This document shows, piece after piece, positions 13,545-20,274 of a DNA stretch of 64,000 nt. Position 1 is the first letter of the stretch, and every line of letters begins with the position of its first letter. The notes beneath the pieces were generated by a model, which saw only the letters and a program-made list of their open reading frames with translations, was not told where the DNA came from and made no database searches. The translations under genes were made by a program, and so were the position numbers. Location of the stretch: positions 64,001-128,000 of the IMG/VR virus record IMGVR_UViG_3300021364_000001. The stretch is one strand, 5' to 3'. The stretch comes from a virus.

Positions 13545-13660
13545 ACTAAAAGTAAGACCATCAGGGAAATGGTGGAGTTACTATTTCCTCTGCACCCTTA
13601 GCAGAGGACATGAGAGACTGTTATTTAACGACGCTGTTTAGTCTCGGTAAGGCGTCGAGA
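13545..13660 (-). ncRNA. Structured psbA 5' leader, probably PhotoRC-II-type RNA motif
   Basis: Hairpins CCTCTGC/GCAGAGG, ACCAT/ATGGT and ACGC/GCGT directly upstream of psbA; PhotoRC-II is known from cyanophage psbA leaders. Confidence 0.6.
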
Positions 13661-13688
13661 TCACGTTACGTTTCGTAACCTGATCATG

Positions 13689-16834: not shown

Positions 16835-16906
16835 TGGGGGATACTGGGATCGAACCAGTGACTTATTGCTTGTAAGGCAACCACTCTACCGCTGAGTTAA
16901 TCCCCC
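16835..16906 (-). tRNA. tRNA-Val(TAC)
   Basis: Cloverleaf GGGGGAT/ATCCCCC, anticodon loop CTTACAA, GGTTCGAT T-arm; CCA not encoded. Confidence 0.95.
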
Positions 16907-16909
16907 ACA

Positions 16910-16983
16910 CGATCCAGGTAGGACTCGAACCTACGACCGACTGCTTAGAAGGCAGTTGCTCTATTCCACTGAGCTACTGGACC
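16910..16983 (-). tRNA. tRNA-Arg(TCT)
   Basis: GGTCCAG/CTGGATC acceptor stem, anticodon loop CTTCTAA, GGTTCGAG T-arm. Confidence 0.95.
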
Positions 16984-19633: not shown

Positions 19634-19656
19634 AAAAAAAGAGACCCGAAGGTCTC
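19634..19656 (-). terminator. Rho-independent terminator
   Basis: GAGACC-TTCG-GGTCTC followed by T7. Confidence 0.85.
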
Positions 19657-19661
19657 TCTTA

Positions 19662-19769
19662 TTATTTCTTTGTAGTGCAGTGCCCTGCCATACAAAGTTG
19701 AGCGTCGCGAAGTTTTTTCTTCTTGACTTCTTGCTGTTTGATAACAGTCAGCCAATTAGTTGTCTTCAT
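19662..19769 (-). CDS. Small basic protein (35 aa, not in ORF track)
   Basis: MKTTNWLTVIKQQEVKKKKLRDAQLCMAGHCTTKK; ATGA coupling to the DUF4278-like gene. Confidence 0.65.
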   Translation of the reverse strand: MKTTNWLTVIKQQEVKKKKLRDAQLCMAGHCTTKK

Positions 19770-19906
19770 TTTGTGACCTCCACTTGCTTAGTGTATACCA
19801 TACCACGATAGTTCATGGTTACGGTCTTGGTCTCGTGCTTTTCTTCCTTCTTCTTAGAAGTAGGAACGCCGCGATAAGCAGTGTGGGTGCTGTAAAGATT
19901 CAGCAT
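19766..19906 (-). CDS. DUF4278-like small protein (46 aa, not in ORF track)
   Basis: MLNLYSTHTAYRGVPTSKKKEEKHETKTVTMNYRGMVYTKQVEVTK; two YRG motifs; AGGAG RBS. Confidence 0.75.
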   Translation of the reverse strand: MLNLYSTHTAYRGVPTSKKKEEKHETKTVTMNYRGMVYTKQVEVTK

Positions 19907-19966
19907 GGTTTTAACTCCTGAAATACTAGGGTGTGCTTAACCTTCTCTCCGAAGAGGATCCGTTTA

Positions 19967-20157
19967 CCCGTTCCTTCAATCGTTTGCGTCCCAATAGAAC
20001 TCACATTCTGGTACAGATTCCTTTACGGTCTCTATTAGTTCTACCACGACTTCTCGTGGTAGTTCAACCTTGTTTAGTTTGATCCTGAACAGTATTTCGT
20101 CAGCATCAGTACACGCCATGGTCGAATATAGAAGTAGTTCTAACATGGGATGAACGC
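19967..20157 (-). ncRNA. Glutamine-riboswitch-like core 2, with an ORF inside P2
   Basis: GCGTTCATCCCA-(ORF)-TGGGACGCAAACGATTGAAGGAACGG: P1 CGTTC/GAACG, P2 TCCCA/TGGGA. Confidence 0.65.
19976..20146 (-). CDS. 56-aa ORF nested in riboswitch core 2 (not in ORF track)
   Basis: MLELLLYSTMACTDADEILFRIKLNKVELPREVVVELIETVKESVPECEFYWDAND. Confidence 0.7.
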   Translation of the reverse strand: MLELLLYSTMACTDADEILFRIKLNKVELPREVVVELIETVKESVPECEFYWDAND

Positions 20158-20158
20158 T

Positions 20159-20217
20159 CCGTTCCGCGATTTACTTGCGTCCTATTCGCTATTCGCAAAC
20201 AACGAATGGGATGAACG
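20159..20217 (-). ncRNA. Glutamine-riboswitch-like core 1
   Basis: CGTTCATCC-CATTCG...CGAATA-GGACGCAAGTAAATCGCGGAACGG. Confidence 0.7.
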
Positions 20218-20242
20218 TGATGTCATACTAACATGACAATAC

Positions 20243-20274
20243 TATTTATACAAGTCAAATGTATCACATGTTAC
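20243..20274 (-). promoter_or_regulatory. NtcA box plus T4 late promoter
   Basis: Exact GTA-N8-TAC at 20261-20274 and TATAAATA at 20243-20250. Confidence 0.7.

Follow-up and report, generated by a model that had tools for sequence, protein, structure and literature searches.

What kind of RNA is formed when two glutamine riboswitch-like cores stand side by side in a phage genome and the second encloses an entire gene, and what would such an RNA control? The question is raised by positions 20217-19967, on the minus strand, of the 64,000-nucleotide stretch analysed here (the window), which is part of the complete 187-kb record of a marine T4-like cyanophage. The element is flanked by nrdB and a 158-aa gene on one side and by talC on the other. 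An earlier note read the cores as a pair of aptamers lying side by side, each forming a P1 of its own, with a pseudoknot across the enclosed ORF joining them, and proposed that ribosomes unwinding core 2 couple sensing to downstream translation. The motif positions given there all proved correct; the start codon of the ORF does abut the 5' P2 strand, with the correction that the A of the ATG had been counted twice and that CCC directly precedes the ATG.

At the gathering threshold, Rfam returned from the whole window a PhotoRC-II RNA and two tRNA genes, at 13573-13668 (-) and 16835-16983 (-), and nothing else. With relaxed thresholds both glutamine models matched core 1 at scores below their cut-offs, Glutamine-II (RF01704) with 19.2 bits (E 0.032, cut-off 33) and Glutamine (RF01739) with 16.5 bits (cut-off 35). 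The ORF-bearing element is missed because the ORF interrupts the model, and covariance scans overlook most copies because whole genes sit in the aptamer loop. One natural ORF-free homologue, with a 48-nt insert in L3, scored 38 bits on RF01739 in the nested register described below, which bears out the glutamine-riboswitch ancestry claimed for the locus; three other ORF-free homologues stayed below the cut-off.

Homologues were gathered in four ways, by protein, by a pattern spanning the ORF, by an ORF-free pattern and by a pattern anchored solely 5' of the ORF, the last of which was the unbiased test. In the viral scan with the 5'-anchored pattern, the 3' half lay beyond the ORF in 73 of the 75 distinct elements, the other two being one degenerate copy and one chance match. 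The arrangement is not a product of chance: for the middle motif 0.01 occurrences are expected in the window and one is present, both Rfam glutamine models match core 1, and 73 of the 75 elements carry the 3' half. Relatives of the nested protein were found in 311 phage records, all of them Synechococcus, Prochlorococcus or unspecified cyanophages, and the RNA was matched by 442, with the same gene-in-loop layout in hundreds of related phages. We parsed 316 distinct phage elements, the proportions among which mirror sampling and not natural frequencies. A strict element pattern gave no match in 185,579 genomes searched for a cellular origin, and a looser pattern gave four real matches in cellular genomes, two on phage-sized contigs of 188-194 kb and the other two on short contigs that belong to a single marine MAG. 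The element is carried by a 188-kb cyanophage-like contig with nrdA-nrdB context inside a Nonlabens assembly (L419) and by a contig of 194 kb from a Synechococcus MAG (L412); both are probably co-assembled phage genomes, and the element appears confined to phage DNA.

Pairing of the repeated cores

The P1 strands were named a and b (5' and 3' of core 1) and c and d (5' and 3' of core 2), with coordinates as in Table 1. On a 46-row alignment enriched for variants, a nested structure consisting of a-d, b-c, a shared P3 and both P2 helices was paired in 99.9% of 1009 cells, against 31-52% in slid controls, and 10 of the 22 pairs changed on both sides. The tandem structure on the same alignment left 11 mismatches in 46 rows in each P1. 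Across the parsed elements, b and c changed together from G-C to C-G in 18 of 316, with a and d either unchanged or independently co-changed from C-G to U-A (L082, L115), and wherever the variable P1 pair has changed in nature, the tandem pairing is lost and the nested one preserved. The linchpin pair is C-G in 312 of 316 elements and G-C in two; in L352 and L387 a G in the first junction is met by a C after d, which is the canonical glnA pair, with the inner pocket staying C-G, and this switch goes with the last GAACG and not with the first. Covariation thus pairs the 5' strand of core 1 with the 3' strand of core 2, and the 3' strand of core 1 with the 5' strand of core 2, so that the side-by-side aptamers with a P1 each did not stand. 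Both P1 helices and the linchpin covary in the nested register only, within the limits that P1 varies at one pair per helix among related sequences and that a tree of the ~50-residue nested proteins is too short for a reliable count of independent origins.

The pairing of AAUCG with CGAUU across the ORF, suggested from this one sequence, turned out to be real and to form the shared P3. The helix present here is a compensated version of the usual AGUCG/CGACU, four further compensated or wobble types were found, and in 8-bp versions both strands lengthen at once. The observation that neither core has its own P3 is right in that none is present locally, but P3 exists as this cross-ORF helix, with a normal E-loop at its base formed by AGUA (20175-20172) opposite GAA (19977-19975), an AAA variant occurring in a minority. 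The P1 and P2 halves that flank the ORF, whose lack of conservation had been named beforehand as grounds for giving up the idea, are conserved and covary in homologues.

The 48-nt L3 insert of the ORF-free homologue is the inner pocket, which read from c runs P1, bridging A, P2, CGCA, P3 backwards and then b. Because of this order, the inner pocket is, on the aligned sequences, a circular permutation of the outer glnA-type pocket. It is without an E-loop and depends on a 3-6 nt linker after b to supply its linchpin G. Ligand contacts in solved glutamine riboswitches are C1:G40, G18>G2:C39 and C19:G41 in glutamine-II numbering, and every ligand-contacting position listed there (PMC6698751) occurs in both pockets, in agreement with the two pockets first proposed. 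Covariation strongly supports one glnA-type aptamer in which the far end of P3 is a second pocket, the two lying back to back on a shared helix; both would be expected to bind glutamine, possibly cooperatively.

Folding software returned P3 in merely 3 of 49 ORF-free versions, so that the nested fold needs tertiary or ligand energy. For the window RNA, the minimum-energy fold is the off helix described below, at -99.4 against -91.4 for the nested fold, 8 kcal/mol apart without tertiary terms. In this genome's fold inner P2 extends into codons 2-4, a feature that was only partly consistent across 20 sequences and was set aside.

The tandem register with its cross-ORF pseudoknot can form, a and c as well as b and d being identical in most elements, and the ligand-free minimum-energy fold does pair a with b. 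The nested stop codon also overlaps the off-helix strand, where terminating ribosomes could free the downstream site, and coupling through this overlap keeps some plausibility. However, with every informative change in P1 and the linchpin running against it, and with ORF-free versions common, we regard two independent aptamers coupled by ribosomes that unwind core 2 as improbable, and the nested two-pocket fold is the one carried forward here.

Table 1. Features of the nested element and of its transcription unit, in window coordinates
Feature	Position	Strand	Remarks
NtcA box GTA-N8-TAC	20261..20274	-	pattern match; conserved in homologous promoters
Putative sigma70-type promoter	20225..20253	-	-35 at 20253-20248, -10 at 20230-20225, 17-nt spacer
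T4 late-type box TATAAATA	20250-20243	-	just upstream of -10 region
Outer P1 5' strand (a), first CGUUC	20213..20217	-	pairs with 19973-19969; C-G to U-A in L082, L115
Outer P2 hairpin, short loop here	20180..20211	-	homologous ORF in this loop in 104/316 elements
Outer J2/3 (CGCA, linchpin C) and E-loop 5' strand (AGUA)	20172..20179	-	linchpin C-G to G-C jointly with base after last GAACG in L352 and L387
Shared P3 5' strand, AAUCG	20167..20171	-	5-bp forms fully paired in 236/236; 8-bp forms longer on both strands
Inner circularly permuted P1 hairpin	20152..20164	-	b 20164-20160 (first GAACG), linker, c 20156-20152 (second CGUUC); G-C to C-G in 18/316
Inner P2 5' strand	20146..20150	-	last base is A of start codon; alignment of homologues
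Nested 56-aa ORF, PHROG 504	19976..20146, including stop; ATG at 20146	-	two invariant Cys, helix hairpin; dN/dS 0.21
Inner P2 3' strand, inner J2/3 (CGCA) and P3 3' strand (CGAUU 19982-19978)	19978..19993	-	encoded by codons W-D-A-N-D and stop
E-loop 3' strand, outer P1 3' strand d (last GAACG 19973-19969) and linchpin G	19968..19977	-	pairing across homologues
Expression platform	19915..19969	-	GGG/CCC stem, optional inner hairpin, anti-aptamer strand 19923-19918
46-aa DUF4278/IF17-like ORF	19766..19906	-	two YRG motifs; PF14105 E 0.002, below cut-off; PHROG 5049/545
35-aa ORF	19662..19769	-	overlaps preceding stop; weak likeness to N-terminal half of PHROG 545, E 0.011
Intrinsic terminator closing the unit	19637..19660	-	terminator prediction

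Genes in the P2 loops

That the P2 loop is filled by a complete ORF was borne out, the inner loop holding a 56-codon gene. Its dN/dS of about 0.21 over 981 pairs marks it as a real gene under selection at the protein level. The nested protein has no Pfam family, its matches in the Atlas are unnamed only, and a fold search gave no significant PDB match and, in BFVD, uncharacterised cyanophage proteins only; the predicted fold of the inner cargo is a helix hairpin (pLDDT 80). The nested-protein profile also has a weak second match elsewhere in the genome, outside the window (G000:C1:17391-17498, L405, E 0.006).

The last codons of the ORF, W-D-A-N-D, had been thought to be shaped by the RNA, and synonymous divergence is indeed 0.063 in the last four codons against 0.415 in the ORF body, with no synonymous change in the D, A and N codons among 57 protein-selected sequences. 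A compensatory change of inner P2 from U-A to C-G turns D into G (5 cases), P3 changes yield WDAQV or WDAKAD, and some ORFs end before the 3' half or read through past it. Judged by these substitutions, the last codons are dictated by the RNA, which prevails where RNA and protein needs conflict. WDAND was also considered as a protein motif and was rejected, as it becomes WGAND, WDAQV or WDAKAD, or is lost, while RNA pairing is kept.

Among the parsed elements both loops were empty in 49, the outer loop alone held an ORF in 24, the inner loop alone in 153 and both loops in 80; by inner loop, an ORF was present in 241 of 316 and absent from 75. The nested ORF is optional and the loops are cargo space; phage Bellamy, for one, has a natural version without an ORF. 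Translation coupling through the nested ORF as an essential feature therefore did not survive, with 75 of 316 elements lacking an ORF in that loop and the stop position varying over some 150 nt, reaching from ~74 nt ahead of the inner junction to 77 nt beyond it. The proteins carried in the outer loop are homologous to those of the inner loop (hhalign 87%, E 4e-6), the two families having two invariant Cys in common, and loop contents appear to have been exchanged between the two repeats.

Several single elements deserve mention. The inner P2 loop sequence of L206, L210 and L217 resembles the outer P2 hairpin loop of the present element (20180-20211), and the inner loop of L376 contains an outer-type cargo protein. 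Outer-loop cargo proteins (L001:1765-1962 and relatives) have a hydrophobic, signal-peptide-like N-terminal stretch, and their ORFs have a leader of only ~12 nt in which no ribosome site is evident.

For the nested ORF, GGAG at 20160-20157, within the b-c linker, is the likely ribosome site. This GGAG is present in 196 of 241 ORF-bearing elements (missing in 45) against 5 of 75 ORF-free ones, and since it tracks the presence of the ORF, the ribosome site used by the nested gene lies within the inner pocket. Nested start codons lie 3-5 nt into P2 in 161/161 cases examined, and 231 of 241 nested stops fall at the P3/E-loop boundary. The same nested riboswitch might nonetheless control the downstream gene only. 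In that case the nested ORFs would be passengers that came to rest in permissive loops downstream of a good promoter; their translation would depend little on glutamine, and their sole effect would be to reduce the share of RNA that can fold. The occurrence of all four arrangements of empty and filled loops, the spread of stop positions, and the swapping of cargo proteins and even short hairpin loops between P2 positions would all be in keeping with passengers. In contrast, the change of the linker from GAU to GAG with ORF presence, which puts the ribosome site in the pocket, and the fixed placing of start codons and of most stops argue against this, and we consider mere passengers unlikely.

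The movement of loop contents between two positions flanked by direct repeats would also suit an element that is not a glutamine sensor, whether another ligand or a protein is bound or the flanking repeats are DNA recombination sites that shuffle small genes. However, the conserved positions coincide exactly with the glutamine pocket seen in solved structures, there are G-U wobbles and covariation of the RNA type, the latter also in the alternative helix over the ribosome site, and host glutamine switches have a matching NtcA box and DUF4278 context, which makes such readings highly improbable. A glutamine-sensing RNA with two pockets is thus retained below.

Promoter, expression platform and proposed control

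The NtcA box was found in 152 of 210 distinct homologous promoters (72%) against 1 of 195 in the background, starting mostly 52-60 nt upstream of P1. A scan of this genome for consensus promoters found none and the promoter here is weak; near-consensus -35 and -10 hexamers occur at the same spacing in many homologues. An inverted repeat flanks the -10 box (20238-20233 and 20226-20221, minus strand), its sequence varying with pairing kept, and arms of at least 6 were present in 117 of 210 promoters against ~4% of shuffles; it could form a DNA hairpin, or an RNA hairpin solely in late or read-through transcripts. The centre of the NtcA box lies at about -50 relative to the inferred start (~-30 relative to the late promoter) and not at -41.5, the activating NtcA position (PMC5714215), so that repression is the likelier mode. 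By analogy with host gifB logic, NtcA most likely represses the promoter under nitrogen limitation.

At the other end of the element, the strand that runs through P3 3', E-loop and d can pair with a segment over the downstream ribosome site to form the off helix; this segment, the anti-aptamer strand, lies at 19923-19918 and overlaps AGGAG (19919-19915), the ribosome site. This duplex lies below -4 kcal/mol in 97.6% of elements against 7.5% of controls that were not composition-matched. Where the aptamer strand is CUAAAG its partner is CUUUAG in 36/36, and CUGAAG pairs with UUCAG or UUUAG; on these sequences, the anti-aptamer helix over the downstream ribosome site covaries. An optional small stem-loop at 19941-19961 (-), with conserved flanks and a covarying stem, occurs in only some homologues. 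The downstream ORF carries YRG in 170/170 distinct homologues, of which L328 passes the PF14105 cut-off, other DUF4278 matches being mostly below it. At 19662-19906 the usual single 54-aa PHROG 545 protein seems to be split and reordered, with the YRG-rich half first. In host glutamine on-switches such as the gifB leader, a YRG-containing DUF4278-type gene lies downstream and an alternative helix masks the RBS (PMC6212724), and the off helix covering the downstream ribosome site here points to an on-switch of the same kind.

We propose, with a probability of roughly 0.6, that the element is a phage two-pocket glutamine riboswitch heading a small nitrogen-responsive operon, in which glutamine would turn the DUF4278-like gene on and the nested gene probably off. 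Without glutamine, the aptamer 3' strand would pair over the ribosome site of the DUF4278/IF17-like gene and keep it off. Glutamine in the two linked pockets would stabilise the nested fold and free the downstream ribosome site, and the same fold would bury the ribosome site and start of the nested gene, which would probably be shut. In a nitrogen-replete host NtcA would be released, glutamine bound and the IF17-like peptide translated; in a nitrogen-poor host the promoter would be damped by NtcA and the off helix formed.

Most nested stop codons overlap the off-helix strand, and a ribosome halted there would itself open the off helix, blurring a reciprocal model. A full reciprocal translational switch, in which glutamine shuts the loop genes and turns on an IF17-like peptide that curbs host glutamine synthetase, is accordingly put forward only tentatively, as a possibility somewhat short of even odds; if true, it gives cyanophages their own nitrogen-sensing module. 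Taken together, the locus points to a widespread module in T4-like cyanophages under NtcA and glutamine control, whose output is probably a regulator of glutamine synthetase. Members of this phage group such as Syn9 are in culture, so that phage sensing of host nitrogen is directly testable.

Comparison with known riboswitches

The closest relative is the glutamine-I class (glnA RNA, RF01739), as in the Synechocystis gifB leader (PMC6212724), with which the phage element shares the P1/P2/P3 junction, covarying here in the outer pocket, the E-loop, the pocket residues and linchpin, a DUF4278-type (IF17-like) gene downstream, an RBS-masking alternative helix and an NtcA box at the promoter, at a window score of 16.5 bits that lies under the gathering threshold of 35. 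In contrast to glutamine-I RNAs, the phage P3 is closed by a second, permuted pocket and not by a loop, the linchpin is C-G and not G-C in nearly all elements, whole genes occupy the P2 loops and the element is found in phage DNA only. With glutamine-II (Downstream-peptide, RF01704; PMC6698751), both pockets have in common the CGCA linking strand with its C-G long-range pair, the inner pocket shares the lack of an E-loop, and YRG peptides lie downstream in both. Unlike glutamine-II, the phage element has no local pseudoknot to a 3' strand right after GAACG, and in place of an H-type pseudoknot with a P1 of the same core, P1 partners are swapped between cores and the inner pocket is circularly permuted inside another aptamer. 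Nor are there two independently folding aptamers in series, as in tandem riboswitches, the two pockets being nested on a shared P3.

Copies of the phage element were already on record. Tandem glnA RNAs are mentioned in Weinberg et al. 2010 (PMC2864571), and rows of its supplementary glnA alignment include marine metagenome copies with and without the ORF; in those rows each core stands as a single match, with the P3 strand unpartnered and the ORF as flank, and the part of the article's text covered here does not describe the nested fold or a gene in the loop. Glutamine riboswitch matches and NtcA boxes have been reported in cyanophages (PMC9964418, PMC9004378, PMC3037559). The 99-nt match in S-CREM1 (PMC9964418) and the 97-nt one-piece match in AG-345-P14 (PMC9004378) agree in length with the ORF-free form, and both were reported as ordinary single riboswitches, with inner pocket, targets and nested genes not noted. 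A literature search lying outside the tandem constructs of Ames and Breaker 2011 returned no account of a nested permuted pocket or of loop genes, and the architecture seems to be an undescribed variant of glutamine riboswitches. For riboswitch biology the element would provide a natural case of an aptamer that is circularly permuted and sits inside its parent on a common helix, and it indicates that whole protein genes can reside in an aptamer loop. The M. tuberculosis B12 and Mbox riboswitch-uORF systems, as presented in parts of PMC11260477 and PMC12810186, likewise link sensing to translation of a small ORF; there, however, the uORF appears to follow the aptamer, whereas here a full conserved gene lies within it.
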